From: an uncultured Chromatiales bacterium
GTDB lineage: Bacteria; Bacteroidota; Ignavibacteria; SZUA-365; CAYQST01
Direction of reading: 5' to 3'
DNA: 64,000 bases
NCBI GenBank assembly: GCA_964420295.1
Contig: CAYQST010000003.1
Span: 104,759 to 168,758 of the forward strand
Part shown: one piece after another, positions 18,147-61,497 of the stretch
Position numbering within the stretch: the stretch's first letter is position 1
Layout of the letters: the number at the start of each line of letters is the position of its first letter
The notes under the pieces: model-generated
What the model was told of the DNA's origin: nothing
Seen by the model: the letters and a program-made list of their open reading frames with translations, nothing else
Databases searched by the model: none
Made by a program: the position numbers and the translations under genes

Positions 18147-18578
18147 ATGTACGGTTTGAACCGCGTTCAGCTCATTGGACATCTTGGAGGAGATCCGGAA
18201 GTCCGCTACACCGCGTCCCAGGACTCTGTCTGCTCATTCAACGTCGCCACCAACGAATCCTACAAGGGACAGGATGGACGCCTGGTCGAAAAGACGGAAT
18301 GGCATCGGTGCGTCGCGTGGAGAAAGGTCGCCGAAATTCTTGGACAGTATCTCCACAAGGGAAGTAAAGTGTATCTCGAGGGGAAACTCACCACCAGAAG
18401 CTGGGAGGACAAGGACGGCAACAAGAGGTACCAAACGGAAATCGTGGTCAGCGATTTTGTATTCCTGGACAGCAAGGAATCCGGCGGACGAGATTTCTCC
18501 CCGCGGAATTCCACAGAATCGATGCCCGAGACTCCGAAAACACCGGATGTCGCGCCCGACGACGACCTGCCCTTCTAA
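18147..18578 (+). CDS. ssb: Single-stranded DNA-binding protein
   Basis: 143 aa. OB-fold SSB N-terminus and a C-terminal acidic tail DDDLPF. Confidence 0.9.
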
Positions 18579-18644: not shown

Positions 18645-18719
18645 GGACGCTTAGCTCAGCTGGTCCAGAGCGCACGCTTCACACGCGTGAGGTCACAGGT
18701 TCAAATCCCGTAGCGTCCA
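18645..18719 (+). tRNA. tRNA-Val (anticodon CAC)
   Basis: Hand-folded: acceptor GGACGCT/AGCGTCC, D-arm GCTC..GAGC, anticodon stem CACGC/GCGTG with loop TTCACAC. The T-arm has one A-C mismatch. No CCA is encoded. Confidence 0.8.
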
Positions 18720-18725
18720 CATCCC

Positions 18726-18752
18726 AAAGCCACCGGTCTCCGGTGGCTTTTT
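18726..18752 (+). terminator. Rho-independent terminator after tRNA-Val
   Basis: aaagccaccgg-tctc-cggtggc followed by TTTTT. Confidence 0.75.
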
Positions 18753-18792
18753 ACATGCTCTGCTCGTGCAGATTTCGCACTGCTCGTAATGG

Positions 18793-18829
18793 CGACCATA
18801 GAATTGCAATATTTGCAATTCTATGGTCG
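18793..18829 (+). promoter_or_regulatory. 37-bp perfect inverted repeat (17-3-17), candidate operator or RNA hairpin upstream of the island operon
   Basis: cgaccatagaattgcaa-tat-ttgcaattctatggtcg. Contains TTGCAA-N3-TTGCAA at its core and lies ~115 nt upstream of the first island gene. Confidence 0.5.
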
Positions 18830-18943
18830 GTTCGATCTGGTATTTCGCAAGAAATCGTGTTACATAGGAATTGCCAAAGCAGGATATGCGTTTCATAGAC
18901 ATGATATCTGTAACACACACACAAACACATTGGAGATGAGGCA

Positions 18944-19444
18944 GTGGGCGCAGGACACATGCTGCTGACCTTGGGAGCGATCATTCTCCTGACCTTCGTG
19001 ATCCTGAAGTTCAATTCGAACTCCCTGATTACAGAGGACACTATTCGTAACGACCAGATCGGAGTCCTGGGCATCAGTCTTGCCACAAGTCTCATCGAAG
19101 AAGCAAGCGCAAAAACCTTCGACGAAAATACCGATACCAACGTAGTCTCTTCAGTGAACTCCCTCAGTTCTACACTTGGACCGGATTACGGACAGCAGTA
19201 CCCCAATTTCAACGATTTTGATGATTACAACAATTTTACCCGCCGAGATACCATTCGGATGAACAATCAGAGATTGGCAATCTTCACTCTTCGATCGACC
19301 GTGAATTACATCAATCCCGCTTCACCCGAAGTCGTCTCGACCTCCCGCACCTGGCATAAAAAAATAACCGTTCGAGTCACATCCGACATGACTCGAGACA
19401 CGATCCGGCTCTCTCAATTCTTCAGCTATTGGACATTTCGGTGA
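18944..19444 (+). CDS. Pseudopilin-like protein (GspI/PilV-like candidate), N-terminal TM anchor, atypical signal
   Basis: 166 aa. GTG start with a GGAGA SD 8 nt upstream. Single N-terminal hydrophobic helix (MLLTLGAIILLTFVIL) and an N/S/T-rich beta-type remainder. No G-F-T-L-I-E motif and no Glu5. Confidence 0.5.
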   Translation: MGAGHMLLTLGAIILLTFVILKFNSNSLITEDTIRNDQIGVLGISLATSLIEEASAKTFDENTDTNVVSSVNSLSSTLGPDYGQQYPNFNDFDDYNNFTRRDTIRMNNQRLAIFTLRSTVNYINPASPEVVSTSRTWHKKITVRVTSDMTRDTIRLSQFFSYWTFR

Positions 19445-19447
19445 TTT

Positions 19448-20047
19448 ATGGGCTCCAGCGTCTTGATTGACCTCATGGGATCCATCGTCATCGGTGGATT
19501 TCTCCTGCTTTCCATTGTCCAGCTCTTCTCGGACGCCACCACAAGCTCCTATCTCTACAACGATGACGTCATTGTGGAGGGGAACCTCGTGGAGGTGGGA
19601 CAGCTTCTTGAACACGATTTTCGAAAAATTGGCTTTTGCAGCAATCCGGATAATTTCACCGATCCCAGCAAGGCAATCATCTTCGCGGACTCGAATCGGA
19701 TTCGTTTCCTCTCCGATATGAATCGGGATGGGAACATGGACACGGTGAAATACTATCTCGGCACGACCACAGAACTGTCATCCACCCCCAATCCCCGGGA
19801 TCGCAAGCTCTATCGGGTCATCAACAGTGAAACGCCGGGTGGAGCGAACCTGGGCGTCACGTCCTTTTCTCTTCGATACTACAACTCTCTAGGCCAGCTT
19901 CTCACTTTTCCTATATCGACTCCCAGTGAGATCCGATCCATCGAGGTGGCGATTTCCGTGGAAAGCGTGGCCTCCATGGACCAGCAATACCGAAAGGCAT
20001 ATTGGAGACAGATTCGACTCGCGGCACGGAACCTCAGTAATCGATAG
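19448..20047 (+). CDS. Pseudopilin-like protein (GspJ/PilW/TadE-like candidate)
   Basis: 199 aa. N-terminus MGSSVLIDLMGSIVIGGFLLLSIVQLF resembles a prepilin/TadE_N hydrophobic segment, with Asp at +6 instead of Glu5. The body (KYYLGTTT...LYRVINSE...GVTSFSLRYYNSLG...IRSIEVAISVE) follows a PilW/GspJ-like pattern. Confidence 0.55.
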   Translation: MGSSVLIDLMGSIVIGGFLLLSIVQLFSDATTSSYLYNDDVIVEGNLVEVGQLLEHDFRKIGFCSNPDNFTDPSKAIIFADSNRIRFLSDMNRDGNMDTVKYYLGTTTELSSTPNPRDRKLYRVINSETPGGANLGVTSFSLRYYNSLGQLLTFPISTPSEIRSIEVAISVESVASMDQQYRKAYWRQIRLAARNLSNR

Positions 20048-20055
20048 GAGGAGAC

Positions 20056-21261
20056 ATGGGTGGAAAGGCGTCTATCCTGCTTGTGTCCGGATTCAGCATC
20101 ATATTCCTCGTTATTGGAATGAATTACGTGCATCTCGGCGGCCTATCGGACGAGAAATACGTGTCCTATGATATCAAGACCAATTCACACACCATCGCCG
20201 TGAGTGGCGCGAACATGGCGGCAGGGGAAATTTACCAGAATTCAGGTTGGAGAACCGGGTACAATCAGGCGCTGATGGGAGGATGGCTCCGACTGTCGAT
20301 GACCGCTCTCTCAACGGAGCGATTGTATTTGCAGTCCGTGGGGATCTTCCAGCAAGATACCAGCATTGTGAACATCCTCTTCCAAGCCAGCACCTTCTCC
20401 AAATTCGCCTACTATGTCAACCAGATGCCCTCTACAAAGTACTTTACCTCGGGAGATACGATTTATGGCCCTCTTCATGCCAATGGACGCCTCAATGTCT
20501 CCTACAGTCCGGTATTTCAAGGCAAGGTGACGACCCTCTCCGGCTTGAAGATGAGTCCTTCGAATTCCACTCCAAAATTCAACGGAGGATATCAGCAGGG
20601 CGTGAATATCCCCCTGCCGTCCACTTCCGCAGATCTTCGATCCGCAGCCCTTGCAGGAGGTCGATACTATTATGATCGCGATGTATGGCTCACCTTCAAT
20701 GCCGATGCCACGGTGACCTACAAAATTGGCAGCACGGGCACCTGGATTACCGAAACTCTCGCTTCCTTTGCTCCAAATTCCATTATTTACGTGGATAAGG
20801 GGAATCTGCATATCAAAGGCACTGTGAATGGCCAGTATACGGTTGCTGCCTCCGGAAGCTCAGGCCTGGGACTGGGAAATGTCTACCTGGATGACGATCT
20901 GGTGTACCGGACGGACCCGTTGATGGGATCATGCTCGGATCTTCTCGGGGTCGTCGCTGACAACAACGTGATCATTGCCGATCAGCTCGCCAATAAAACG
21001 GACATCAATATCATGGCCTCCCTCATGTGTCTTAATGGAGGCTTGATGGCCGAAGACTACCAGCATATCCCTCTCTGCGGAGCAATTCGGCTCACAGGAG
21101 GACTTATCGAAAGCATGTCTCAGCCCGTGAACAGAATGTCCGGCACCACCATGGTTGGGGGCTACAACCAAATTCTGAAATACGACGAAAGACTGTTGAA
21201 ACTCGCCCCTCCCCTCTTTCCAAAAACCGGCGCTTTTGAAATTCTTTCATGGTGGGAGTAA
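20056..21261 (+). CDS. Large pseudopilin-like protein (GspK/PilX_N/TadG-like candidate), paralog A
   Basis: 401 aa. Strong AGGAGGA SD. N-terminal anchor MGGKASILLVSGFSIIFLVIG with no acidic residue. ~55% identical to the downstream paralog. Conserved MCL(N/K)GG...AEDYQHI.LCG and C-terminal KYDERLL...FPKTG..EILSWWE. Confidence 0.65.
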   Translation: MGGKASILLVSGFSIIFLVIGMNYVHLGGLSDEKYVSYDIKTNSHTIAVSGANMAAGEIYQNSGWRTGYNQALMGGWLRLSMTALSTERLYLQSVGIFQQDTSIVNILFQASTFSKFAYYVNQMPSTKYFTSGDTIYGPLHANGRLNVSYSPVFQGKVTTLSGLKMSPSNSTPKFNGGYQQGVNIPLPSTSADLRSAALAGGRYYYDRDVWLTFNADATVTYKIGSTGTWITETLASFAPNSIIYVDKGNLHIKGTVNGQYTVAASGSSGLGLGNVYLDDDLVYRTDPLMGSCSDLLGVVADNNVIIADQLANKTDINIMASLMCLNGGLMAEDYQHIPLCGAIRLTGGLIESMSQPVNRMSGTTMVGGYNQILKYDERLLKLAPPLFPKTGAFEILSWWE

Positions 21262-21393
21262 GGAATGGCCACCCGGTTGAAGCATTTGCCATCCGTCCCC
21301 CAGTTTTCGATGTTTTCTTCTTTGAAGTACCGAAATTAGTGGCGTATTTGCTTCTGCGTTCTACGCTGAACTCATTCGATTCGGAGTGTCCCC

Positions 21394-22599
21394 ATGGGCG
21401 GAAGAGCAGCCTTATTTCTTGTTGCCGGTTTCAGTATCGTCATGTTGACGATTGGCATGAATTACGTGAGAGTCGCGGGGCTTGCGGAGGATAAGTACTC
21501 CGAGTACTTTCTCAACACCCAGGCACATGCCATCGCCGTTAGTGGCGCCAATATGGCCGCCAACGAGATATTCATCAGTCCCGCCTGGAATGCGGGATAT
21601 AACGTGAACATGATGGGCGGAAAGCTGATCGCCACCGTGCAGGCCCTGGCGGCGAATCGCATCCAGCTCACCTCGATCGGCATTTACAACACGGATACCG
21701 CGATTGTACGCGTAGTATTTCAACCGAGCAGTTTCGCGAAATTCGCGTACTATATCGATCAGATGCCCTCCAATCTCTATTTCGCGACGGGGGATACGGT
21801 GTGGGGACCGCTACACGCCAATGGTCGGCTCAACGTGGCCTACTCTCCGGTGTTTAACGGAAAAGTGACGACTCAGTCCGGCTTGAAGAAGAGTCCGTCC
21901 TACTCCACGCCGAAGTTCAATGGAGGATATCAGACCGGCATCTCCATTCCCATGCCCACGACGACGAACGACCTGAAATCCCTCGCTCAGAGCGGAGGCC
22001 AGTACATCTATGACAAGGAAGTGTGGGTGACCTTCAACGCCAACGGCACCGTGACGTACAAGCTCGGTTCGACCGGGACCTGGATGACCACCAGTGCCAG
22101 TGCCTTGATGCCCAATGGTGTCCTGTATGTAGAAAAAGGCAACATGCATATCAAGGGCACGGTGAGCGGGCAATACACCATTTGTTGCATGGGAAGCTCT
22201 GGTTATGGACTCGGCAACGTTTTCTTGGATGACAACATCGTCTACAAGGTCGATCCGAAAACACCCGGAGCAACAGACATGCTCGGCATCGTGACCGAGA
22301 ACAATGTGTACATCGCTGACACCGCCCCAAACAAGAGCGATATCGTGATCAATGCTTCCATGATGTGCCTCAAGGGTGGGTTCGCGGCCGAGGATTATCA
22401 GCACATCGGACTGTGCGGTACGAGCTACATCACGGGGGGTATCATCGAAAAGATTTCTCAGACTACCGGTCAGATTTCTCAAGGGCAACTCACGAGCGGG
22501 TATCGGTTGAATCTCAAGTATGACGAGCGGTTCCTCGTCGATACTCCACCCTTCTTCCCGAAGACGGGCAGCTACGAAATTCTGTCGTGGTGGGAGTAG
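21394..22599 (+). CDS. Large pseudopilin-like protein, paralog B
   Basis: 401 aa. Same length, architecture and C-terminal EILSWWE motif as paralog A; a tandem duplication. Confidence 0.65.
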   Translation: MGGRAALFLVAGFSIVMLTIGMNYVRVAGLAEDKYSEYFLNTQAHAIAVSGANMAANEIFISPAWNAGYNVNMMGGKLIATVQALAANRIQLTSIGIYNTDTAIVRVVFQPSSFAKFAYYIDQMPSNLYFATGDTVWGPLHANGRLNVAYSPVFNGKVTTQSGLKKSPSYSTPKFNGGYQTGISIPMPTTTNDLKSLAQSGGQYIYDKEVWVTFNANGTVTYKLGSTGTWMTTSASALMPNGVLYVEKGNMHIKGTVSGQYTICCMGSSGYGLGNVFLDDNIVYKVDPKTPGATDMLGIVTENNVYIADTAPNKSDIVINASMMCLKGGFAAEDYQHIGLCGTSYITGGIIEKISQTTGQISQGQLTSGYRLNLKYDERFLVDTPPFFPKTGSYEILSWWE

Positions 22600-22635
22600 A
22601 AGACCTTTCTCACTGCTCGATGGATGAACCGTTAA

Positions 22636-22665
22636 GCGCGCTCATGGACCATGAGCGCGTTTTTC
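22636..22665 (+). terminator. Rho-independent terminator closing the island operon
   Basis: Palindrome cgcgctcatgg-a-ccatgagcgcg (11-bp arms) followed by TTTTT. Confidence 0.7.
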
Positions 22666-22701
22666 GTATGTTGCGCTCTCCCCCATTTGCCGTGGATCAC
22701 G

Positions 22702-28590: not shown

Positions 28591-30555
28591 CTACGGCGCC
28601 TCGCGATCTGGAACAAGGGGATCCTCCCCCGTTCTCACCTTTCCCCGTTCTTTCGACATGGAGTGGATATGCGCGGACGTGGAGACCAGGGAGAGGAGTT
28701 CCGCTCGCTTTCCCTCCGGGTCGGGTGCGGTGATCGCGCGAAGTGACTCCATCACGTGCCCGAAGCTCCCGGCACCCCGATGCGGAGAATCCCGCAGAAG
28801 CATCGCCCATTCGGCGATGGCCGCAGAAAGGCGAAGATTGTCCGTGAGAGGAGACGAGGGGTTCCAGTCAATCGGGATCTCCCGCTTCACGCTGGTGCCA
28901 TTGACCACAGTCTTGTAGCGGGATTTGAGGGTAGCGAGTTCCGCTGATCCCTGCCGAGGTGTCGAGATTTGGTATTTCAGGGAATCCACTGTGCGCCCCG
29001 ACCCAGACGCGGAGGTCGGAATGATTTCGTACAGGGCCGTGACGCGGTGTCCCAGGCCCAGTTCGCCGGCATCCTTTGCATCGTCGTTGAAGTCTTCGCT
29101 TTCCAGCATCCGATTCTCATATCCAATGAGACGGTACTCCTTTACCATCGCGGGATTGAACTCCACCTGGAGCTTCACGTCGCGGGCAAGGACGTACATG
29201 GTTCCGGCAAACTGTGTGCCCAGAACCCGTCTCGCTTCTTCGAAGCTGTCAATGTAGGAGTAGTTTCCGTCGCCCTTATCGGCCAGGAGTTCCATGAGAT
29301 CGTCCCTGATGTTGCCGGTCCCGAATCCAAGTACGGATAGAGTGACACCGGACTTCCGCTTCCTTTCCACCAGACGAACCAGTTCGTCGTTGGAAGTGAC
29401 GCCCACGTTGAAATCCCCGTCCGTCGCTAGCACCACGCGGTTGTTCCCTTCCTTCAGGAAGTTGCGTTCCGCGATATGATAGGCCAGGGTGATGCCCGCG
29501 TTTCCATGCGTGGAGCCTCCCGAGGTGAGCTGATCGATGGCCTGATGGATCCTATCCTTGTACCGTCCCGAGGTCGGCGGAAGCACGCATCCGGCCGCGC
29601 CGGCATAGACGACGAGGGACACCTGATCCTCTTCTCGCAGCTCGTCGACCAGCACATGAAAGGCCCGTTGGAGGAGGGGCAGTTTCTGAGGGTCGTTCAT
29701 CGATCCCGAGACATCGATAAGAAAGACGATGTGAGATGGCGGAAGAGACGCTTTATCGATCGTGCGCGCACGGAGACCGATGAGCAACAGACGATGTTCC
29801 GGATTCCAGGGACAGGGTCCTGTTTCCGTGCTCATCGAATATGGATCTTCACCGCTCGGCTCAGGATAGTCATAGGTGAAGGAATTGATCATTTCCTCTG
29901 AGCGGATGGATCCCGGAGGAGGGAGTTCGCCCGAACGCAGAAGGCGTCTGATATTGGCATAGGATGCGTTATCCACATCGATGGAAAAGGTGGACAGGGG
30001 GTGAGCACCAACTCCGAGGAACCCATTGTCCTGAAACGCGGCATAGCGCTCTCCTGCAGGCACCCATGGAGCAATGGCTCTGTCTGCCGCAGTCCGTGGT
30101 GACCCTTTGGAAAAGCCTGCGGATGAATGTGCGGGTGACACACCAGAGGGAGCATTCAAGGACATGCTCAGCATGGGACGGCCATCCTCTTCGTCTCGAT
30201 GGGTGGATTCCGGGAAGAGCGCCACATTCCATACCACATCCCCCCCATGAACAGGGAGAGATCCTTCCTCGACTGTCCGATATCCCGGTGCGGAAAACCG
30301 CACGGCTCCGCTACTGGTCGCAGACAGGGCCAATCGATACCGCCCCTCGTGATCAGCGCGAACCGAGACTCGAGACGACACACTCGATATTTCGGCGAGA
30401 GGGATCGGATCTCCTGTCATGGCATCGGTCACCACTCCCGAAAGAGTGGCTTCCGGGAATCCTGAGGATGATCGCGACCACGACGATCCGTCAAAGGAAA
30501 AGAGTGCAAGCACCAGGCTCGCGGGAATCATCACCATTGCCATCGAATGTGCCAT
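28591..30555 (-). CDS. von Willebrand factor type A domain protein (YfbK-like), secreted
   Basis: 654 aa. MIDAS motif IVFLIDVSGSMND. CarbopepD-like N-domain. C-terminal DUF3520-like region. Confidence 0.75.
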   Translation of the reverse strand: MAHSMAMVMIPASLVLALFSFDGSSWSRSSSGFPEATLSGVVTDAMTGDPIPLAEISSVSSRVSVRADHEGRYRLALSATSSGAVRFSAPGYRTVEEGSLPVHGGDVVWNVALFPESTHRDEEDGRPMLSMSLNAPSGVSPAHSSAGFSKGSPRTAADRAIAPWVPAGERYAAFQDNGFLGVGAHPLSTFSIDVDNASYANIRRLLRSGELPPPGSIRSEEMINSFTYDYPEPSGEDPYSMSTETGPCPWNPEHRLLLIGLRARTIDKASLPPSHIVFLIDVSGSMNDPQKLPLLQRAFHVLVDELREEDQVSLVVYAGAAGCVLPPTSGRYKDRIHQAIDQLTSGGSTHGNAGITLAYHIAERNFLKEGNNRVVLATDGDFNVGVTSNDELVRLVERKRKSGVTLSVLGFGTGNIRDDLMELLADKGDGNYSYIDSFEEARRVLGTQFAGTMYVLARDVKLQVEFNPAMVKEYRLIGYENRMLESEDFNDDAKDAGELGLGHRVTALYEIIPTSASGSGRTVDSLKYQISTPRQGSAELATLKSRYKTVVNGTSVKREIPIDWNPSSPLTDNLRLSAAIAEWAMLLRDSPHRGAGSFGHVMESLRAITAPDPEGKRAELLSLVSTSAHIHSMSKERGKVRTGEDPLVPDREAP

Positions 30556-33366: not shown

Positions 33367-36168
33367 ATGAAAAGATCCTTGGGACCATTCGGTACCCATA
33401 TCCTCATTGTCCTCATCATGAGTATTCTCGGAGCGACGGCAACGCTTCGAGCAGCGATGTTCGAGTCCGTAGCCAGCGGAAACTGGAGTCAAACTTCGAC
33501 GTGGAACTCGAAAACGCTCCCCGGCCCCGGAGATACCGTGATTGTGACCGCACACGACGTCATTCTGGATTGTTCGGCCACCATTTCTCTGCTCTTGATC
33601 GGATCCCAGGGTCCGAGCAGCGTGGAATTCGATGCCATCGGCATTTCTCGCATCCTCCAGATCGAGACACGACTGGAAATTGCCCCTGGCTCGCGCTTCG
33701 ATTCGCCTCTCATCGGCATCCCCACCATGCATACGCTTCGCCTCCTCGGCGACCTTGTCAACCACGGTTTCCTGCATCTCGATCGCAACAACTCGATGCC
33801 GTGTATTCTCACTCTTGAGGGTTCCGCTGCTCAGACATTGGAGGGTACGGGTCCATGGACCATCCTGTCCTCGGTGCGCCTCGAGAAGAGCGGCCCATCC
33901 AATCCGGTTCTCTGCCGTCTTTCCATCACTTCGTCCAACGTGCCCTGGCACTTCATCCGCGGCACGTGGATCCAGGCCGATGGTACCCTGCTGCTCACAT
34001 CGGATCAGAGAGTAGGTCCCGACTGCCACATTGAAGTTCAGGCGGGGGGACTCCTCGATCTTCGCCAGGGCACGCTTCACCTCCAGGGAGAATTGAGACT
34101 GACTCCCTCAGGAGTGGTGGATATCGGCATCGAGGGTGCAGGTTCGCTCGTGATGGAGGGGCCTGGAACCGGTGCACGCCTCGATTGCGACGGAGGCCTG
34201 GTACGCGTCCACTCCGGAGCCCTGCATGCCCACGCCGGGGTCGTGGATATCACGGCAGGCATGGTAACCCTGAGCCCACGTACCGCCTTCGGGGGGATCT
34301 CCCTCGGCGTCCCTGTTTTGTTGGTTGATTCCAGCGCCCAATGGCTTATGTCCGGCGGCCTCCTTCGCGTGGTCGATCCCAATGGAAACCATGGTCCCTT
34401 GGCAGACCTGTGCATTGGAGGGAATGGAAGCCATTCCATCACAGGTGGATGCATCTGTCTGGGGGATGAGACAAGTGGAGACCTCACAGGCGCCCCCTTT
34501 TCCATCGCGTCCACTGTCATGTTCCCTCAGGTGAGTGTCATGACCCTTGGACGGAATGTGGAGCTTTTCACGACACTCATCATTGCCGAGCGTCTCGATC
34601 TGGTGTCCGGAACGATCGGGAACTGCTCCAATCCACTCGCGCTCATGGCGAATGCGCAGGTCCATCAGCAGGATGGCACGCTTGCCTGCCCTCCCCTTTT
34701 TGACACCTCCGTTCGACTTTGGTATGAAGCCAACGGACCTGTGGTCACCGGGCCAGAATGGCCCTCCTTGCCGGTAGAGGTGACCGAGCTTCTTGTAGAT
34801 ACGCCTTCGGGATTGATATTGGATCAAGATGCCCGTATCACCCAGGCCCTGACGCTTCGTTCCGGAGGGTTCGACTGCGACGGAGCAGCAGGCACCGTGC
34901 AATGTCGACTCTCGCACGGGTGTCGCATTCGACGGGAGCAGGGCTCATTGGTTGGAATCCCGTATCACGAAGGCGATCCGCAGGTGGAGTACTCGGGTAC
35001 CATCGCCGCAGGAACAGGTGAAGAGGTTCCGCCATCCGGTCGGGTCGGCTCCTTCGAGGCATACGGGGGAGCGGAGATTTCCCTTTCCCGCGATATCGAC
35101 GTCGCAGACAGTGCGGTGTTCGCTACCGCGCTCGTGGACCTTTCCTCCTTCGTGTTCCGGCTTGCCGATGGAGCGTGCTGGAAGGAAGATGATTTCTCTC
35201 GCTTCGTGTCGAATGGTGGATGGATCGAGGCCGAGCGCGATCTCACTCTCGGCTTCGAAAACAATGTTGCCGGGCTGGGATTGGATGTGGAGCAACCTTC
35301 GGGAGTCCTGGGGCCAAGCCAGATTAGGCGGACTCACGACGCGGTGATCGTGGGAGGTCAGCCAGGCATAGGACGCGTTTTTGAACTGACGAGCGGATCA
35401 TCGGTAATGGTCGGCCCCGTACTTCACTACCTCCCTTCTGAGGTGCAGGGACTGTCCCCAGGACACCTGACAGGCTATGTATCCCTGGACGGAGGGGCAA
35501 CCTGGACCAGTGATCCGGGAGCGACCGTGGATTCGGTGACGAACACGATTCACTTCTCTCCGCTGCATCCCCCCTTTCGCATCACCGGAGGACGTATCCA
35601 ACCCCAGCCTGTGGAGCTGATTGCGTTTTCGGGACGGCGCCTCGACGAGAAACATGTACGTCTGACGTGGAGAACCGCAACCGAGACCAATTGCGAGGGA
35701 TTTTTCGTTGAACGCCGAGAGGGCGAGGCCTGGGTGGAACGTCGTTTTCTTGAAGGCCAGGGAACGACATCCCATCCACACGAGTATAGGATCGATGATG
35801 TGGTGGACCATCCCTTCACAAGCACCTATCGCCTGCGGCAGGTGGATCGCGATGGCACGATCCATTGGAGCCCTGAACTCGTCGTCGAAGGATGGGGAGG
35901 CCATCGTACTCCCTTCACGGTCTATCCCACCAGGACCACAGGGTTCCTGACTCTGGTTCTCCCAACACCGGAAAGCAGGCTTGCGGGCATTCGTGTCATA
36001 GACCTTTTGGGTCGCCCTGTCCACGACGAATGGGTGGACCCGGTGATGTCGTCGGCCTCGCATTCGCTCTACCTGCCAGAACTTCCTCGCGGATCCTATA
36101 TCCTGCACTGTCTATGGCGAAACAGGGAGCACGTGGAAGTGGATTGGGCGCGAATCATCCTCGAATAG
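33367..36168 (+). CDS. Large secreted protein with T9SS C-terminal sorting domain
   Basis: 933 aa. Signal peptide. Gly/Thr-rich beta-helix-like body. An Fn3-like pre-CTD module (VRLTWRTATE..FFVERRE..YRLRQVDRDGT). Type-A CTD (LLGRPV..LPELPRGSYILH). Confidence 0.65.
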   Translation: MKRSLGPFGTHILIVLIMSILGATATLRAAMFESVASGNWSQTSTWNSKTLPGPGDTVIVTAHDVILDCSATISLLLIGSQGPSSVEFDAIGISRILQIETRLEIAPGSRFDSPLIGIPTMHTLRLLGDLVNHGFLHLDRNNSMPCILTLEGSAAQTLEGTGPWTILSSVRLEKSGPSNPVLCRLSITSSNVPWHFIRGTWIQADGTLLLTSDQRVGPDCHIEVQAGGLLDLRQGTLHLQGELRLTPSGVVDIGIEGAGSLVMEGPGTGARLDCDGGLVRVHSGALHAHAGVVDITAGMVTLSPRTAFGGISLGVPVLLVDSSAQWLMSGGLLRVVDPNGNHGPLADLCIGGNGSHSITGGCICLGDETSGDLTGAPFSIASTVMFPQVSVMTLGRNVELFTTLIIAERLDLVSGTIGNCSNPLALMANAQVHQQDGTLACPPLFDTSVRLWYEANGPVVTGPEWPSLPVEVTELLVDTPSGLILDQDARITQALTLRSGGFDCDGAAGTVQCRLSHGCRIRREQGSLVGIPYHEGDPQVEYSGTIAAGTGEEVPPSGRVGSFEAYGGAEISLSRDIDVADSAVFATALVDLSSFVFRLADGACWKEDDFSRFVSNGGWIEAERDLTLGFENNVAGLGLDVEQPSGVLGPSQIRRTHDAVIVGGQPGIGRVFELTSGSSVMVGPVLHYLPSEVQGLSPGHLTGYVSLDGGATWTSDPGATVDSVTNTIHFSPLHPPFRITGGRIQPQPVELIAFSGRRLDEKHVRLTWRTATETNCEGFFVERREGEAWVERRFLEGQGTTSHPHEYRIDDVVDHPFTSTYRLRQVDRDGTIHWSPELVVEGWGGHRTPFTVYPTRTTGFLTLVLPTPESRLAGIRVIDLLGRPVHDEWVDPVMSSASHSLYLPELPRGSYILHCLWRNREHVEVDWARIILE

Positions 36169-38648: not shown

Positions 38649-39230
38649 TCAATCGGCGTCGATCGGAGAACGCGAGCTGCGGATTCGGCTCAGGGAGACC
38701 GGTGAAATCCCCAGGTAGGATGCCACGTGGTACTGGGCGATACGGGTTTCGAGACCGGGATACTCGGTACGAAACCGCCGGTAGCGCTGTTCCGCCGTTT
38801 CGGTGAGCATGAGTTCCCGAGAGATCTTCACGCGCAATTCCCGATGCGTGATCGCATGCGCCCAGCGTTGAAGATCGGGCCATTGTGCTCTCACCTGCTC
38901 GAAGTGTCGCGCATCGATTTCCAGGATGTCCGTTTCGATCAGGGCCTGGTACTGAATGGTGGACCTTCCCTGCACGGTACGAAGGAACCAGGGCATCAGA
39001 ACCTGGTCGTCCGAATAGAAGGAGACATTGACCTCCTCGCCCGACTGGGTCACATAAAATCCCCGAATGACACCGCGAATGACGAAGACTTCGAACGGGT
39101 AGAGATCACCCAAGGTGACGAGACTCTGGTTCCGTTCGAGACGGCGGGATCGCGTCATCGAGGATAGCTCTTCCCAGATGCGATCCGGCAGGATGACGTC
39201 CCGTTCGATATTCGCGCGAAAGGCCTGCAT
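38649..39230 (-). CDS. Crp/Fnr-family transcriptional regulator
   Basis: 193 aa. cNMP-binding beta-roll and C-terminal HTH (VASYLGISPVSLSRIR). Confidence 0.8.
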   Translation of the reverse strand: MQAFRANIERDVILPDRIWEELSSMTRSRRLERNQSLVTLGDLYPFEVFVIRGVIRGFYVTQSGEEVNVSFYSDDQVLMPWFLRTVQGRSTIQYQALIETDILEIDARHFEQVRAQWPDLQRWAHAITHRELRVKISRELMLTETAEQRYRRFRTEYPGLETRIAQYHVASYLGISPVSLSRIRSSRSPIDAD

Positions 39231-39345
39231 ACCGATCTCCGAGTGAGGTCAGCACGAAAAGTAGCAATTTCCGCTTTCGATTGTCTGCCCCTTTCTCCGC
39301 ACGTGCCGACGTCGTAGATTCGGAAACACGCCCAGGAGAGAACCC

Positions 39346-40329
39346 ATGCCCGCCAACATCGCGCATATTCTCATCGCCCATGCCGCCAGTGACGCCCTGC
39401 CCCGCCCCATTCAGGAGTTGATCACCAGCAAGAGCGCCTTTTTCTATCTCGGCTCCCTGGGCCCCGACCTGCCGAGCTACCGCACACGGGAGCTGATAAC
39501 GTCCGCGCTGAACGATTCCCTCCTGCGGCCCTTCGTGGATCAGTCCGATCCCACGGATCAGGATGCGAGCTTCTTCCTGCACTCTGTTCATCCGCATCTG
39601 ATCCCCTACCATCTCGTTGAGACCATCCCTGCCTTTCTTCCGGCGGAGTTGTCCGCGCCGTCGGATCGCGATCTGCTCGATGCCGCACTCGTGTTCGCGC
39701 TTGGGTACATCACGCACATTGCGGCGGATCAGATCATCCACCAGGATGTCCGCAGAATCGTGGGACCATACTACCGCACGCGACGTATCTCCCAGGCGCA
39801 TGCCGAATGCGAAGTGTATCAGGATCTGTTCTTGTTTGCCGAGCTCTTCCCGACCCGCGTCTACGACAAGACCATTCAGCGAAATCTGATCGACATCACA
39901 AAATTCGATTTTGATACGGACACCTTCTGCTCGCTCGTGAGTTTGGCGATGGCCAAAGCCGGGCACAGCAGTGTCCAATGGAAAGATGTCGAAGCCTGGG
40001 TAGAGGGCGTTCTCTTCACCTTCGATGTGATGGATTCCATCGGTCCCTATGCCTCCGCATTTCGCATGCTCTCCCGATCCGAGGAGGACGCGGAGCGTTC
40101 GGATCGGATGCGCCGATACTATCGGGACCCTGCGACGAACTGGGAGTACTTGTCCCGCTATCGTCTGGCCGTGAATACTGCCGTTCGGTATCTGAAGACC
40201 CTGCTCGAGTTGTACGAGAGTCGGGATTTTTCCTGGGAACGATTCTCGGCATATCAAACCGCAGTGCCGCCCTACGATCTCACCTCTCCGGTGTTCCCTC
40301 CATCCATGGCGGGGACAGATCCCGTATAG
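39346..40329 (+). CDS. Zinc-dependent phospholipase C / S1-P1-nuclease-fold family protein
   Basis: 327 aa. N-terminal HxLIAHAA...GSLGPD motif typical of the zinc-dependent PLC superfamily. Assignment is weak. Confidence 0.5.
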   Translation: MPANIAHILIAHAASDALPRPIQELITSKSAFFYLGSLGPDLPSYRTRELITSALNDSLLRPFVDQSDPTDQDASFFLHSVHPHLIPYHLVETIPAFLPAELSAPSDRDLLDAALVFALGYITHIAADQIIHQDVRRIVGPYYRTRRISQAHAECEVYQDLFLFAELFPTRVYDKTIQRNLIDITKFDFDTDTFCSLVSLAMAKAGHSSVQWKDVEAWVEGVLFTFDVMDSIGPYASAFRMLSRSEEDAERSDRMRRYYRDPATNWEYLSRYRLAVNTAVRYLKTLLELYESRDFSWERFSAYQTAVPPYDLTSPVFPPSMAGTDPV

Positions 40330-45166: not shown

Positions 45167-45201
45167 AAAAGGCCCGAGTGTCCTGCGACGCTCGGGCCTT
45201 T
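45167..45201. terminator. Bidirectional rho-independent terminator between proS and clpC
   Basis: ggcccgag-N12-ctcgggcc flanked by an A-tract and a T-tract. Confidence 0.7.
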
Positions 45202-45219
45202 GTCGTTGGCGGATGGCGA

Positions 45220-47739
45220 TCAGTTGTTGTGAATCGCCTCCATGGCATCGGCATTGACGAAGATGATGCCGTCCTTGTTCTCATTCATCGTCACCAGCAC
45301 ATGGCTCCCCGATCCGAAGGTACCGCGAAGCAGCTCTTCGGCGAGGGGGTCTTCGATGAGATTCTGCAGCGCGCGACGCAGCGGACGGGCCCCGAAGTTG
45401 GGATCGAAGCCTTTGTCTGCGACGAAGGAGCGGGCATCGTCGGTAAAGGTGAGTGTGATATGGAGGTGCCCGAGGCGAGTCAGGAGTTTGGCCACGGAAA
45501 TGTCGATGATGCGCATGATGTGTTCCTTCGTAAGGGAATGGAACACGATGGCCTCGTCGATGCGATTCAGGAATTCCGGATTGAAGAGGCGCTTCATGGA
45601 ATCCTCGACCGTTTTCTTCATGTCGGAGTAGGCGTTCTCCTCGCGGGGCGCTTCGCCAAATCCGAAGGCCGGACCTTTTTTGATATCACGGGTTCCGACA
45701 TTGCTGGTCATGATCAGGATCGTGTTCTTGAAATCCACGCGACGCCCCAGACCGTCTGTGATGATCCCATCATCGAGGACCTGGAGCAGGATGTTGAACA
45801 CGTCGGGATGTGCCTTTTCGATCTCATCCAGCAACACGACGGAATACGGCTTTCGTCGAATCTTCTCGGTGAGCTGTCCTCCTTCTTCGTAGCCCACGTA
45901 TCCAGGAGGAGCTCCGACAAGGCGGGACACCGAGAACTTTTCCATGTATTCGCTCATGTCGATTCGCACGAGGGCATCCTCTGTGTCGAACAGGTAGCGA
46001 GCGAGCACCTTGGCCATTTCGGTTTTTCCGACGCCCGTGGGTCCGAGAAAGATGAAAGAGCCGATGGGACGAGACGGATCCTTGAGTCCTGCGCGGGTTC
46101 TGCGAATGGCCCTGGCGAGCCGATCGATCGCCTCGTCCTGTCCGATGATTTCCTTCTTGAGTTCCTCCGCCATCGAGAGCAGGCGCACCGATTCGGACTG
46201 CGCGATACGGTTGACCGGAATTCCCGTCATCATCGAGACGACGTCGGACATGATGTCTTCGTTGACCTCGTGAATCTGGTTCATGGATTCCTCTTCCCAG
46301 CGTCGCTTCACTTCGTCGAGTTCGTTGAGGAGACGCTTTTCCCGATCCCGCAGCCTGGCCGCTTCTTCGAAATTCTGGCTACGAACGACTTCGTTCTTCT
46401 GGCCCTTGACCTGCTCGATTTCTTCTTCGATGGTCAGGATTTCTTTCGGAACGACGATGTTCTGCAGATGCACGCGTGCGCCCGCTTCATCCATCACATC
46501 AATGGCCTTGTCCGGCAAATAGCGATCGGTGATATAGCGATCGCTGAGGCGCACGGCCTCCTCGAGGGATTTGTCGGTGAAGTGCACGTTATGGTGCTGT
46601 TCGTATTTGTGCTTGATGTTGTTCAGGATCTGGATGGTTTCGTCCACCGTGGTGGGATCGACGAGAATCTTCTGGAACCGACGATCGAGGGCTCCGTCCT
46701 TTTCGATGTACTGTCGATACTCATCCAGTGTCGTGGCGCCGATGCACTGAATATCGCCGCGGGCCAGAGCGGGTTTGAACATATTCGAGGCATCGAGGGA
46801 ACCGGAGGCCCCACCCGCCCCGACGATGGTGTGCAGTTCGTCGATGAAGAGAATGATATCCTTGGCTTTTTCGAGCTCGTTCATCACCGCTTTCATGCGC
46901 TCTTCGAACTGCCCCCGATACTTGGTGCCCGCCACCAGGGCGGCGAGGTCAAGCGTCACCACGCGCTTGTTGTGAAGGACGCGCGACACTTTTTTCTGAA
47001 CGATTCGAAGGGCCAGTCCCTCGGCGATGGCCGTCTTCCCCACTCCCGGTTCGCCAATCAACACGGGATTGTTCTTTTTGCGACGGGAAAGCACCTGGGC
47101 CACCCGTTCGATTTCCTTATCCCTCCCGATGATGGGATCGAGCTTGTCCTCCTGGGCCAGTTTCGTCAGATCCCTGCCAAAGTTATCCAGCAGCGGCGTG
47201 CGGGTCCGCTCGGGTTTCTCCTTCTTCTCCGGCGTGGATTTGGGTTCCTGTCCCGACCCCGCTTTCGAAGGGAAGAACTCGTCCTCGGCCTGCATAGACG
47301 GGGCGAGTCCATGGATCGATTCGAGTTCGCCACGGACGCCGTCGTACTCGATCGAATAGCGGCCGAGAATCTGGGCGGCGATGTTATCCTCGCCGCGCAG
47401 GAAGCTGAGCAGAATATGTTCGGTTTCGATGGTATCGGAGTGATAATGTTTGGCCTCGACGAAAGAGACCCGAAGGACGGATTCGGCCTGCTTGGTGAGT
47501 GGGATGTTCCCGATCGTCATCGTCGTGGAAGACGAGCGAATACTGTCTTCGATGGTCTTCTTCATTTTATCGAGATCCGCGCCCAGATTGCGCATGATCT
47601 GCACGGCCACTCCCTCCCCTTCACGGATGATCGCCAACAAGAGGTGCTCTGTCCCGATGTAGTCATGTCCCAATCGAATGGCTTCTTCCCGGCTCAGCCG
47701 GATCACTTCTTTTGCCCTATTCGAAAAATTACCTTCCAT
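45220..47739 (-). CDS. clpC: ATP-dependent Clp protease ATP-binding subunit ClpC
   Basis: ~840 aa from [12 protein letters not shown]. Double Clp-N repeat, two AAA+ modules with Walker [17 protein letters not shown], and a UVR-like motif. Confidence 0.9.
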
Positions 47740-47939
47740 GATGTACGTCCAATCGTTACTGGTATGTCCATTCAACATCGCGGGTCGGAGATTTGTTCTC
47801 TCGATGCCCTGCCAAAATAGGACCGCACGGAGTGAAATCCGAAGCGGGCGCCAGGGAGATCACGAATTACCCTGTACCACACGACCTCTCCGCCAGAGAC
47901 GGAGAGGTCGCAGAGGAGAACGCTGTTCGGTTGTGACGA

Positions 47940-50018
47940 CTACTTCAGGAGGAGCATGGAACGCGTCAGCACGCGATCCCCCGTAGTAAGAGTCATGCGA
48001 TAGGACCCCGAGGGAAGGAGTTCTCCGGCATCATTCCGACCATCCCATACGATCGTATGTGAGCCCGGATCCTGTACCCCCTGCACGAGCACGCGCACCA
48101 ATCGCCCAAGCATATCGTGGATCTCGAGTCGCACCATCGCGGGTGCGGGCAGATCCAGGGTGTAGCGTATGGTGGTGGTTGGATTGAAGGGGTTGGGATA
48201 GTTCTGGTCGAGATGGACCGATGCCGGGGCCATAGGATCGATGTTGTTGGTGGAGCCGGTGGGTTCGAGCACAAGGAATGCAGTATACGGAGTCAGGACA
48301 CTGTACTTGATACTGAGCGCCACCACCTGATCAACCAGCTCCTTTCTTTCTCCGACTTGGGAAATCAGGCGAAGGAGACTGGCGATCTTCTGAGCTCCCC
48401 AGTAACGGGCCACCATCAGATCCGTGGTATTGGTGTCGGAGAACATCACGTCCTGCACCACCGAGAAGGGGCTTCCTTCCACATCGCCGATCAGAGAGAG
48501 GGTATGCATACCGAATTTCTTGAACCGACCCACCGAAATGATCTGATCTCCGGACGACACCACGGGCAGAGGATCAGGATGGACATCGTAGGCGCCCAGT
48601 TGCCCGTACTCCATGGTGACATTGCGAAGCGTCGGCAGGATGAAATGACGATAGAGTTCCTTGAATCGCACGTACATACTGTCCGTGGATTCGATTGCCG
48701 TGAAGAAGCCATTGTTTCGGGTGGCCAGATTCTTCAACAGACTGTAATCCAGTTCTTCGCCCAATCCGACGGTATAGATGGAAACCTGACTCGTATTGAG
48801 GCGGGTGGCCGCATTGATGATGGAATCCGGTTGCGTGACTCCCCAGCTCGGCTGCCCGTCGGTGACAAATAACACAGAGGCTTCAGTTGAGCTGGTCCAG
48901 GTTTGCTTCAGAGCTTTCGTCAGTGCCGCATCGATGTTCGTCAATCCCATCGCCACGATTTTCGACACGAAGTCTCGTGCGGCATTCTTCTCTTCGGGTG
49001 TGGCCGCCACGAGGTCGGAGCGGAAGGAGACTACCCCCGTGCTAAAGGTGATGATGTTAAAATGATCCTTGTCCGTGAGCAGATCGACGAAGGAACGCAG
49101 CGCATCCTTAAGTTGGACGAGGCGATCGCCTTCCATACTCGACGACACATCCGCGACGAACACCATGTCCCGTCCTTTCGTCAGATCACCAGTCAAGGAA
49201 TCCGGAGCGGTGGACCAGAGCACATAGAAGGGATCCTCGGTAGGTGCGGAGGGATCGCGGTAGGTGAGAGCGAGCATGTAGCGATGATCGCGATTCACAG
49301 TGCAGCGGATATGGAAGTCCCTGGAGAAGGACACATTCTCCACTCCGTACACCACGTCCCAGGCATTCGGACTCTTTTGCGTCACCACCACCGAAGCCGG
49401 AAACTGATCCACGCTCGTTTCGAGGGCGGGAAGTGCCAATTGACTCTGGATCGACACTTTCAGGGCCACGCGTTCGATGGGCGCCGAGGTGTAGTCCTTC
49501 ATGTCCAACGGAAAGGTGTACTGCAGACTTTCCGAGAAATAGGCCAAGGGCTGCGAATACACGATCTCGATCCGTCTCACCGAGCGCGCATCGATGGGAA
49601 AGATGCGGAGCTGAAAGCGATTGTCCCCAAACTGTTCGAGCAAGGCGGGATCCTGGATTCCGCGCACGATTTCTTCGTAGCGCTGGACTGCTTCCTGACG
49701 CTTCTTGACGATGTAGGGGACGCGGAGTCCGTTAATCCAGAGATACAGTTCATTGACCTGGGCGCCGGTGGGAAGCTTGAAGACATAGAACCCCTCGAGA
49801 CGCTGGTTCTGATCGTTGGCGAATTCCTGATCCACGTGGGTCACGGCCATCTGATCCTGGATGCGGACCTCGGCAGTGAGGGTTTTAATACGAAGATTGT
49901 AGATGGGACTCGAAGCCCAGTTCGGGATACGGGCATAGACCCGACCGATGGCCATCATGGACGTCGAACACAGCAGAAGAAGCAGGAGCGTGAGAAGAGA
50001 ACGAAGCAGGTATTTCAT
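47940..50018 (-). CDS. VIT + vWA domain secreted protein with T9SS C-terminal sorting domain
   Basis: 692 aa. Signal peptide, VIT-like N-domain, MIDAS motif VFVADVSSSMEG, and CTD (YPNPFNPTTTIRY...MLLLK). Confidence 0.75.
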   Translation of the reverse strand: MKYLLRSLLTLLLLLLCSTSMMAIGRVYARIPNWASSPIYNLRIKTLTAEVRIQDQMAVTHVDQEFANDQNQRLEGFYVFKLPTGAQVNELYLWINGLRVPYIVKKRQEAVQRYEEIVRGIQDPALLEQFGDNRFQLRIFPIDARSVRRIEIVYSQPLAYFSESLQYTFPLDMKDYTSAPIERVALKVSIQSQLALPALETSVDQFPASVVVTQKSPNAWDVVYGVENVSFSRDFHIRCTVNRDHRYMLALTYRDPSAPTEDPFYVLWSTAPDSLTGDLTKGRDMVFVADVSSSMEGDRLVQLKDALRSFVDLLTDKDHFNIITFSTGVVSFRSDLVAATPEEKNAARDFVSKIVAMGLTNIDAALTKALKQTWTSSTEASVLFVTDGQPSWGVTQPDSIINAATRLNTSQVSIYTVGLGEELDYSLLKNLATRNNGFFTAIESTDSMYVRFKELYRHFILPTLRNVTMEYGQLGAYDVHPDPLPVVSSGDQIISVGRFKKFGMHTLSLIGDVEGSPFSVVQDVMFSDTNTTDLMVARYWGAQKIASLLRLISQVGERKELVDQVVALSIKYSVLTPYTAFLVLEPTGSTNNIDPMAPASVHLDQNYPNPFNPTTTIRYTLDLPAPAMVRLEIHDMLGRLVRVLVQGVQDPGSHTIVWDGRNDAGELLPSGSYRMTLTTGDRVLTRSMLLLK

Positions 50019-50064
50019 GGCGATCTCTTGAAATGAACGTTCAGAGGAACACAGGACAGGACCG

Positions 50065-60645: not shown

Positions 60646-61497
60646 ATGAGATCCCTTCACTTTCGAAGCGGATCCTCCAAAACCATAGGAAATTTTTTCA
60701 TCACATTCTCTCGTTCAGTCAACTTCATGCAGGAATTTCACGACGGTTCAGATTCTCGATTGCAGGAGGCAGTGAGGGATAGGAAATTGCACGTGGTCAT
60801 CAGAACACGATTCATTTCCACTTCCACCTGCCCATCATCCACAGATTCCAGCAATCGCGAACCATCCGACAGGCCTGCCATGACACCGACCACCCCCTAC
60901 TACGAGTTCGCCCTTACGCCCCCTGGGCCCACGCCTTCGGCGGATTTGTCTACCTTTTCCGCCGCCTCGAGACCGGAGGGTATCCGTTTGACATGGATTG
61001 TTGCAGTGGACGAAGAAACCCAGGGCTTTGCCATTGAACGGCGGTCGGACCTTTCCAGCGCCTGGGAACTGATCAGTTTTGTGGAACGAGAAGGGGAGCC
61101 ACAGACTCCGCATTCCTATACCTTTCTCGATTCCCAGGCAAAACGAGGGGATTTCCATTACCGTCTGCGTCAGATCGATCAGGAGGGAACGAAGGCCATT
61201 TCCACCGTCGTGCATGTCTCGGCAGGTCGGGGTCCGGCGCGATTCGCCCTTGGCAACAATTACCCCAATCCCTGCACGAGTTCGACAGCTTTGGCCTATG
61301 TCGTCCGCGAAGAAGCCCCCATCACCATCGTGGTCACCGATTCGATGGGACGAGATGTGATGACTCCCGTGGACAGCACCGTGGAACCAGGCACCTACAC
61401 CCTCCATCTCGATCTGCATCAGATGCCTGCCGGGCTCTACTTCGTTCGTATGAAATCTCCTGATTTCGAGGACAGTCAATTGATCTTCAAGCGATGA
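60646..61497 (+). CDS. Fn3-like + T9SS C-terminal sorting domain protein lacking a signal peptide (possible truncated gene)
   Basis: 283 aa. Pre-CTD module (IRLTWIVAVDEETQGFAIERR..YRLRQIDQEGT) and type-A CTD (GNNYPNPCTSS..LIFKR). No N-terminal signal peptide. The in-frame stop lies only 15 nt upstream of the ATG. Confidence 0.45.
   Translation: MRSLHFRSGSSKTIGNFFITFSRSVNFMQEFHDGSDSRLQEAVRDRKLHVVIRTRFISTSTCPSSTDSSNREPSDRPAMTPTTPYYEFALTPPGPTPSADLSTFSAASRPEGIRLTWIVAVDEETQGFAIERRSDLSSAWELISFVEREGEPQTPHSYTFLDSQAKRGDFHYRLRQIDQEGTKAISTVVHVSAGRGPARFALGNNYPNPCTSSTALAYVVREEAPITIVVTDSMGRDVMTPVDSTVEPGTYTLHLDLHQMPAGLYFVRMKSPDFEDSQLIFKR

Follow-up and report, generated by a model that had tools for sequence, protein, structure and literature searches.

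Tip complexes built from minor pilins or pseudopilins have been described for the GspI-GspJ-GspK set, the PilV-PilW-PilX(-Y1) set and the PilA2-PilA3-ComZ set of Thermus. ComZ is a competence-associated, GspK-like pilin with a β-solenoid inserted between its last two strands, which is placed at the pilus tip and binds PilA2 (PMC6561018). The same architecture with a β-solenoid tip plug was reported for cyanobacterial PilX pilins, where each of two different pili is said to be primed by its own set of minor pilins (preprint 10.64898/2026.02.12.705559). For the Ignavibacteria and their relatives, the genome paper of Melioribacter roseus reported pilB, pilC, pilT, and pilQ, with pilA and pilD not found (PMC3534657), and the genome paper of Ignavibacterium album makes no mention of pili. 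The subject of the present analysis is a four-gene cassette (genes P1 to P4) in a 64 kb stretch of contig CAYQST010000003.1 (hereafter the window) from an uncultured member of the Ignavibacteria. The cassette very probably forms one operon that encodes the minor pilins, for the tip or for priming, of an Ignavibacteria-type pilus resembling type IVa pili (T4aP). This assignment is carried by three lines of evidence: the folds predicted for P2 and P3, a conserved order of the genes, and, in relatives, the cassette's linkage to pilus machinery.

All four genes lie on the + strand and follow each other with intergenic gaps of 3, 8, and 132 nt. P1 (18944–19444) has a GTG start and encodes a small minor-pilin candidate of 166 aa, recognized from its open reading frame (ORF) and the family alignment. 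P2 (19448–20047) encodes a protein of 199 aa with the predicted fold of a GspJ/PilW-class minor pilin. P3 (20056–21261, 401 aa) is predicted from its fold to be a ComZ-like tip pilin, and P4 (21394–22599, 401 aa), a paralogue of P3 by sequence identity, would be a second one. Each protein begins with one N-terminal hydrophobic helix, and Asn, Ser, Thr, and Gly together account for 31–35% of its residues. The arrangement supports a minor-pseudopilin-like set in GspI/J/K (PilV/W/X) order. An earlier reading made from the letters of the stretch alone (the sequence-only reading) had already pointed to the single hydrophobic helix in every protein and to a likeness with the GspI/J/K or PilV/W/X series; both observations held, the second through the gene order, the P2 fold, and the P3/P4 fold.

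Predicted Structures of P3, P4, and P2

The structure of P3 was modeled from an alignment of 49 sequences with a predicted local distance difference test score (pLDDT) of 91.4 and a predicted template modeling score (pTM) of 0.81. The model consists of an α1 helix (residues 2–61), a four-stranded pilin sheet (69–113), a β-solenoid (approximately 119–375), and a C-terminal strand (390–400), and the chain ends in a conserved SWWE. In this prediction, a pilin domain and a triangular β-solenoid share one chain. In its order of secondary structure, the succession of four sheet strands, solenoid, and last strand fits a ComZ-like arrangement, in which that strand would rejoin the sheet. The long N-terminal α1 on an antiparallel β-sheet that defines the pilin fold was found in the predicted structures, and ComZ chains were the only significant matches when the P3 model was searched with Foldseek (E 4.8e-10). 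The P3 model supports the assignment of P3 and its paralogue P4 as putative pilins of the GspK/PilX position, ComZ-like and bearing a β-solenoid, in agreement with the PilX/GspK likeness that the sequence-only reading had seen in genes 3 and 4.

P3 and P4 align without gaps at 60% identity, which amounts to 42% in the pilin sheet, 54–60% in the later solenoid, 71% in the first solenoid turns, and 81% in the C-terminal strand. The orthologue from a machinery-linked locus of a relative (L007; loci of relatives carry numbers with L) is 55% identical to P4 and 48% identical to P3. In a neighbor-joining tree, which is not a robust phylogeny, P3 and P4 were sisters, indicating a lineage-specific duplication, and tandem duplications of this kind were also present in L029, L034, L055, and L074. 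The tree grouped them with the cassettes of L007 (within a machinery cluster), L012 (with a neighboring pilin gene), and L014 (with a machinery cluster at a distance of about 2.7 kb). The nearest relatives of P3 belong to the same clade at 47–49% identity, and more than 425 homologues were retrieved by a word-indexed search.

Residues 106–161 of P3 and P4, which cover the first solenoid turns, matched the Pfam family DUF4900 (PF16241) with E values of 1.5e-6 and 3.9e-6; the scores of 28.8 and 27.5 bits lie just under the gathering cutoff of 29.4 for this model of 89 positions. Many P3 homologues bear a precomputed PF16241 label, and no functional study of DUF4900 or of Ignavibacteria pili came up in literature searches. 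A second cassette in L047 (11325–13385) encodes a P3-like protein that is shorter, at 336 aa, and shares the MGKAS... start and the C-terminal ...DWWE motif, and several other loci hold P1-P2 pairs with no recognizable P3 downstream. These arrangements suggest interchangeable tip domains.

The predicted fold of P2 is of the GspJ class, with similarity to GspJ, EpsJ, and XcpW, and matches GspJ proteins from type II secretion systems (T2SS) as well as it does Thermus pilins, which bears out the PilW/GspJ likeness read earlier from gene 2. The family comprises at least 507 homologues in the word-indexed search, one of which was labelled PulJ by the Joint Genome Institute (JGI). Searches of P2 against the GspJ and PilW models of Pfam and NCBIfam gave no membership, the sole match being a prepilin peptidase-dependent protein model at E 0.1 (11.9 bits against a cutoff of 120), and none of 44 P2 relatives had a pilin family match in Pfam. 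The N-terminus of the P2 family reads MG|FSTLIDILGS with an invariant Asp8, and the protein of the window reads MGSSVLIDLMGS. As a family motif, it may be regarded as a near-canonical class III signal with one extra residue.

The P1 Family

P1 begins with MGAGHMLLTLGAIILL, the counterpart of MNTG|QMLITLGA in the family consensus, and most of the 150 family representatives that headed a search of representative sequences share an M-[NG]-[TLS]-G-Q start. In the public NCBI annotation, P1 is 161 aa long and starts from an internal ATG (Met6); the family alignment (MNTGQM... versus MGAGHM...) supports the upstream GTG at 18944 as the start. According to the family alignment, the N-terminal segment of the protein is long and hydrophobic, and its C-terminal half is beta-rich. 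An acidic motif, FNDFDDY (residues 91–94 at 19214–19225 of the window), contains invariant D91, D93, and D94 and nearly invariant F89 and F92, and might constitute a metal-binding (Ca2+) site. At least 386 homologues were retrieved by the word-indexed search, some of them named MshD by JGI, and an exhaustive profile search returned 1,384 cluster representatives (50% identity) at E≤0.001. Because of its hydrophobic N-terminus and beta-rich half, its fixed place upstream of P2, and the MshD label of JGI, P1 is considered a candidate small minor pilin in the GspI/PilV/MshD position. It always occurs directly upstream of P2-P3. All of the 150 top representatives were close family members, and no bridge to canonical pilins appeared among them.

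Distribution and Linkage to Pilus Machinery

Homologues of the cassette proteins come mostly from Ignavibacteria, Melioribacteraceae, and metagenome-assembled genomes (MAGs) labelled Chlorobi or Bacteroidota, and the families are conserved in length. To describe their surroundings, 79 genome loci were fetched with 10 kb flanks. P1-P2 lay directly upstream in 81 of the 87 evaluable P3 homologues, and 5 more homologues followed another P3, as in the window. Two or more cassettes were present in 22 of the 79 loci.

The cassette stood beside or inside a T4aP-like cluster in L007/L008 and in 9 of the 79 genome loci. In six loci (L007/L008, L072, L078, L084, and L085) it was flanked by pilB and a pilT-family gene. 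The full cluster there runs from 1–4 small pilin-like genes through PilC, PilB, P1-P2-P3, and a PilT-family ATPase to a PilM/N-like protein, then a 294-aa protein, and lastly a secretin. In L012, L014, L041, L070, and L073, the cassette had machinery genes as neighbors, most of them encoded on the other strand. NCBIfam models gave 431 bits for PilB and 297 bits for PilT/PilU (profile positions 3–341 of 343) in L007, where PilC and the secretin also matched. The cassette did not adjoin machinery in the remaining 70 of 79 loci. In the MAG RBG_16_34_14, one cassette is machinery-linked (L070) and another is an orphan (L077), so that orphan cassettes coexist with machinery encoded elsewhere.

The machinery clusters also encode candidate major pilins of about 120–140 aa, which adjoin PilC and PilB in 1–4 tandem copies (L007 4417–4806 and 4913–5302; also in L012, L014, L041, L070, L072, L073, L078, and L084). 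In all machinery loci they begin with MGQQQLLLIVLGVIIVG, in the MGQQQLLL style, with no acidic residue or Glu5 and no N_methyl match. A stop codon 0–4 codons upstream in several of them limits the leader there to a few residues. No prepilin peptidase gene (PilD, Peptidase_A24) was seen in any machinery cluster; the scan covered clusters rather than whole genomes, and this result is only a lead.

N-Terminal Signals and Points Against a Minor-Pilin Role

At their start, the cassette proteins have a hydrophobic stretch together with a conserved Gly (P1 MNTG|Q, P2 MG|F, P3 MxG|K), and the P3 family starts with M-x-G-K-A-S. None of P1–P4 matched N_methyl (PF07963) or TIGR02532 at E≤10, no match to either was found at E≤1 among 43 P1 and 44 P2 relatives, and searches of the P1, P2, and P3 family profiles against sequences of the Protein Data Bank (PDB) gave chance matches only. 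The profile search that the sequence-only reading had called for assigned P1–P4 to no pilin family and returned, apart from the weak P2 match, just the borderline DUF4900 match of P3 and P4. The same reading had noted that a signal of the GFTLIE type is missing, which is literally true of the window proteins and does not extend to the near-canonical consensus of the P2 family. Its further remarks, namely, that no leader is positively charged, that three of the four proteins have no acidic residue at or near +5, and that gene 2 has Asp at +6, were in accordance with the family alignments.

Several findings weigh against a minor-pilin assignment. The leaders are 2–4 residues long and contain no basic residue before the Gly, and an acidic residue at +5 is missing from P1 (which has Thr there), P3, and P4. 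The P1 and P2 families matched neither class III signal profiles nor the sequence models of GspI/J/K and PilV/W/X, and when the P1 and P2 profiles were compared with hhalign, the hydrophobic helix alone was aligned. No pilus machinery was detected in the 64 kb window or in the 10 kb past its left edge, which holds housekeeping genes only, and relatives alone are the ground for expecting machinery elsewhere in this genome. Within the window, a tblastn search with seven machinery proteins of L007 (among them pilin, PilC, PilB, PilT-like, PilM/N-like, and secretin) found no match, and Pfam scans of 20 other ORFs revealed no pilus machinery, as the sequence-only reading had stated for the 64 kb. 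Its suggestion that the set relies on machinery elsewhere is backed by the cassettes inside type IV pilus (T4P) clusters of relatives and by the MAG with both L070 and L077. An acidic +5 residue is expected to be absent from P3 and P4 if they are tip subunits of the GspK/PilX type, and P2 has an invariant Asp that would occupy +6 if cleavage follows Gly2.

Proposed Mechanism

A mechanism can be proposed by analogy with GspI-GspJ-GspK, PilV-PilW-PilX(-Y1), and PilA2-PilA3-ComZ. With their N-terminal helices, P1, P2, and either P3 or P4 would be anchored in the inner membrane and would form a helix-bundled heterotrimer there. The heterotrimer would cap and prime the filament that a PilB-type ATPase polymerizes from the major pilin on a PilC platform, and would then stay at the distal tip of this filament. 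The rigid β-solenoid of P3 or P4 may act as a tip plug and ligand-binding head, with a surface, a polysaccharide, or DNA as candidate ligands. The lack of an acidic residue near +5 in P3 would be that of a tip subunit, with P2 contributing its invariant Asp, and P3 and P4 could serve as alternative heads on the same P1-P2 base.

A wider proposal can be put forward only tentatively, with some chance of being right and a greater one of being wrong. Ignavibacteria and relatives may possess a distinct T4aP-like lineage with near-leaderless major and minor pilins (MG|QQQ, MNTG|Q, MG|FST, MxG|K) that have no basic residue, Glu5, or N_methyl match. Such pilins might assemble without a canonical PilD, with Gln or Asp contacts replacing the salt bridge between Glu5 and the N-terminus, and interchangeable, partly orphan P1-P2-P3 cassettes might give one machine varied β-solenoid heads.

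Alternative Explanations

The cassette could encode the DNA receptor of a competence pilus, as PilA2-PilA3-ComZ does in Thermus, with P3 or P4 as the tip subunit that binds extracellular DNA. ComZ, a DNA-binding tip pilin, provides the one close match among solved structures (PMC6561018); ssb lies directly upstream in the window and beside orphan cassettes in five other loci, and the machinery clusters include a PilT-family retraction ATPase. The likeness to ComZ and the neighboring ssb are a hint of a role in DNA uptake. However, the β-solenoid PilX of cyanobacteria serves competence and motility pili alike, which shows that the fold is not specific for DNA, and P3 and P4 are not basic (isoelectric points of 6.2 and 6.9). 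Sequence identity to ComZ is 13–15%, and no mapping onto P3 was possible for the two lysines of ComZ to which DNA binding has been ascribed. Cassettes linked to ssb fall in another P3 clade than those of the window and have ssb on the opposite strand, and this linkage is therefore probably coincidental or convergent. No other competence genes were noticed in the window, where they were not searched for systematically. A competence receptor is accordingly judged unlikely.

The sequence-only reading had proposed a horizontally acquired genomic island inserted at tRNA-Val, an explanation that now appears improbable. The cassette does lie directly 3' of a tRNA gene with terminators on both sides, and the GC content of P1–P4 (48–54%) is 3–9 points under the window mean of 57.2%. 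A contrast of 47–55% with a background of about 62% had been described earlier, whereas the flanks range from 0.54 to 0.62 and mostly from 0.57 to 0.62. The claim of AT-rich codon usage was not borne out. GC at third codon positions (GC3) is 0.59, 0.64, 0.61, and 0.71 in the four genes, within the 0.54–0.75 of the other window genes (one small ORF excepted), and the deficit is carried by the first codon positions (GC1), with 0.45–0.52 in the four genes versus mostly 0.53–0.75 in the window. Since GC3 is normal and GC1 is low, the dip reflects the composition of Asn/Ser/Thr/Ile-rich proteins rather than foreign synonymous codon usage.

Comparison with relatives led to the same view. Over 75 related loci, the GC content of the cassette averages 1.8 points above the flanks, and it falls below them mainly in genomes of higher GC (L007, L015, L018, L031, L033, and L035). 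The sign of the offset thus follows genome GC, indicating a trait of a composition-constrained protein family. A repeat search found no attachment-site (att)-like direct repeat of the tRNA-Val 3' end, the interval from tRNA-Val to cobB contains the four pilin genes only, with no integrase and no extra ORF, and a tRNA adjoined the cassette in none of the 20 related loci checked. The nearest P3 relatives, as described above, come from the same clade, in which the cassette is widespread, and the identical arrangement recurs in six contigs, each assembled from a different sequencing run. Cassettes in relatives occupy many unrelated genomic contexts, a point in favor of a mobile module: the cassette clearly moves over evolutionary time, which is distinct from a recent acquisition from outside the clade. 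An amino-acid-driven GC dip beside a tRNA can pass for a genomic island.

A third explanation is that the proteins cap a T2SS-like pseudopilus for protein export instead of an extracellular pilus. The P2 fold fits T2SS GspJ as well as Thermus pilins, the ATPase and secretin of L007 also score against GspE and GspD models, and Denise et al. noted that Bacteroidetes have a so-called T2SS that is divergent and whose pseudopilins are very divergent (PMC6668835). The linked clusters, however, hold the near full-length PilT/PilU-family ATPase, which is absent from T2SS, together with the 1–4 tandem candidate major pilins. The first ATPase matched PilB best (431 versus 378 bits for GspE), and the solenoid head of about 280 residues resembles T4P tip pilins rather than GspK. 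A role in such an export system is thus decidedly improbable.

That the proteins are membrane-anchored surface or periplasmic proteins independent of any type IV filament, mimicking pseudopilins as the sequence-only reading had also considered, would accord with the missing canonical class III signal and N_methyl match and with the 70 of 79 loci that have no machinery neighbor, but is barely credible in view of two independent predicted folds specific to minor pilins, the strict three-gene order, the conserved linkage to pilB, pilC, pilT, and secretin (with six cassettes between pilB and a pilT-family gene), and the unusual N-terminus style shared by the candidate major pilins of the clusters.

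Flanking Elements and Other Genes of the Window

The minor-pilin cassette is preceded by a tRNA-Val gene with the anticodon CAC (18645–18720, + strand; ARAGORN, and Rfam tRNA at 65 bits), which is an upstream neighbor and boundary and lies functionally outside the cassette. The Rfam scan of the window found two tRNAs and nothing else. The succession of tRNA-Val and a tight four-gene set, as described by the sequence-only reading, was confirmed in gene sizes and spacing, and its two strong terminators were both corroborated by folding. The first (18726–18750, + strand) would end the tRNA-Val/ssb transcription unit and has an 11-bp GC-rich stem followed by TTTTT; its folding energy of -18.6 kcal/mol (z -5.9) was equalled by 0 of 200 shuffles. 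The second (22634–22667, + strand), found by an inverted-repeat search, marks the operon end with a 13-bp stem followed by TTTTT, and its hairpin (22634–22662) folds at -23.1 kcal/mol (z -3.9) with a T-run after it. A simple terminator scanner missed both hairpins.

Between the tRNA-Val terminator and the P1 start, repeat search and folding detected an inverted repeat (18793–18829) whose arms of 17 bp match perfectly around a loop of 3 nt. It folds at -26.2 kcal/mol (z -6.65), is not followed by a T-run, and possibly regulates the pilin operon as an operator or as an RNA hairpin. Upstream, the cassette is flanked by ssb, and genes for SIR2/cobB, pyruvate kinase, and acetyl-CoA carboxylase follow downstream, an arrangement found in all six contigs mentioned above. 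In L054, L062, L074, L077, and L080, an ssb gene about 40% identical to that of the window (18147–18578) is located directly upstream of an orphan cassette on the opposite strand, at approximately 8100–8550 in L054, L062, L077, and L080 and approximately 5300–5700 in L074.

Elsewhere in the window, one gene encodes a protein whose C-terminal sorting domain (Por_Secre_tail; 60646–61497) is that of a type IX secretion system (T9SS), two adjacent genes encode VIT/VWA proteins with a C-terminal FlgD_ig domain (47940–52134), and another encodes a VWA/YfbK protein (28591–30555). These proteins fit an organism of the Fibrobacteres-Chlorobi-Bacteroidetes (FCB) group with a T9SS and show no visible tie to the pilin cassette. 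Three further ORFs (33367–36168, 933 aa; 45178–47820, 880 aa; 39106–40257, 383 aa) had no Pfam match at E≤1e-5.

Significance

The minor-pilin assignment would provide a function class for three large families now labelled hypothetical or DUF4900, with at least 386–507 homologues each and the 1,384 representatives of P1. The pilA and pilD reported as missing from Melioribacter can be seen in this light, as pilins may exist yet escape profile detection. If real and functional, the near-leaderless N-termini would challenge the need for a charged class III leader and for Glu5 in type IV filament subunits. Through the multiple cassettes, modular pilus tips would become tractable in a phylum that is abundant in the environment.

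Comparison with Known Systems

The closest parallel is the pilA1-pilA2-pilA3-comZ-pilA4 locus of Thermus thermophilus, in which small pilins and a large solenoid pilin adjoin in one operon as they do in the cassette. The solved Thermus structures used for comparison were ComZ (PDB 6qvi), PilA2 (6qvf), and TTHA1219 (5g23). ComZ likewise escapes sequence-based pilin detection (PMC6561018), its identity to P3 is low, and sequence profiles gave no match to PDB chains. With 518 residues in the ComZ chain and 401 in P3, the solenoid of P3 is the shorter one. The Thermus locus has five gene types versus three in the cassette, whose short, uncharged leaders are also unlike those of the Thermus locus.

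The GspI-GspJ-GspK (PDB 3ci0) and PilV-PilW-PilX sets share with the cassette the gene order by size and class: first a small pilin, then one of the J/W class, and finally a large tip pilin that has no Glu5. The extra domain of GspK is an alpha-helical insertion, whereas that of P3 is a β-solenoid placed after the fourth sheet strand. The cassette contains neither a fourth minor pilin of the GspH/FimU class nor PilY1, and its proteins show no sequence-profile matches to GspIJK or PilVWX. GspI carries an acidic residue near +5, which P1 lacks.

The cyanobacterial β-solenoid PilX is a pilin of the PilX position with a bulky, ice-binding-like solenoid that was proposed to be a tip plug replacing PilY1 (preprint 10.64898/2026.02.12.705559). 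The presence of several minor-pilin sets per cyanobacterial genome, which possibly prime functionally different pili, parallels the 22 of 79 loci with at least two cassettes and the duplicated P3/P4. The cyanobacterial sets belong to a different phylum and, according to the preprint, comprise FimT and PilW classes with canonical prepilin signals. The cassette is best regarded as a probable sequence variant of the minor-pilin tip complex in a phylum with an uncharacterized pilus, rather than as an island of foreign DNA.

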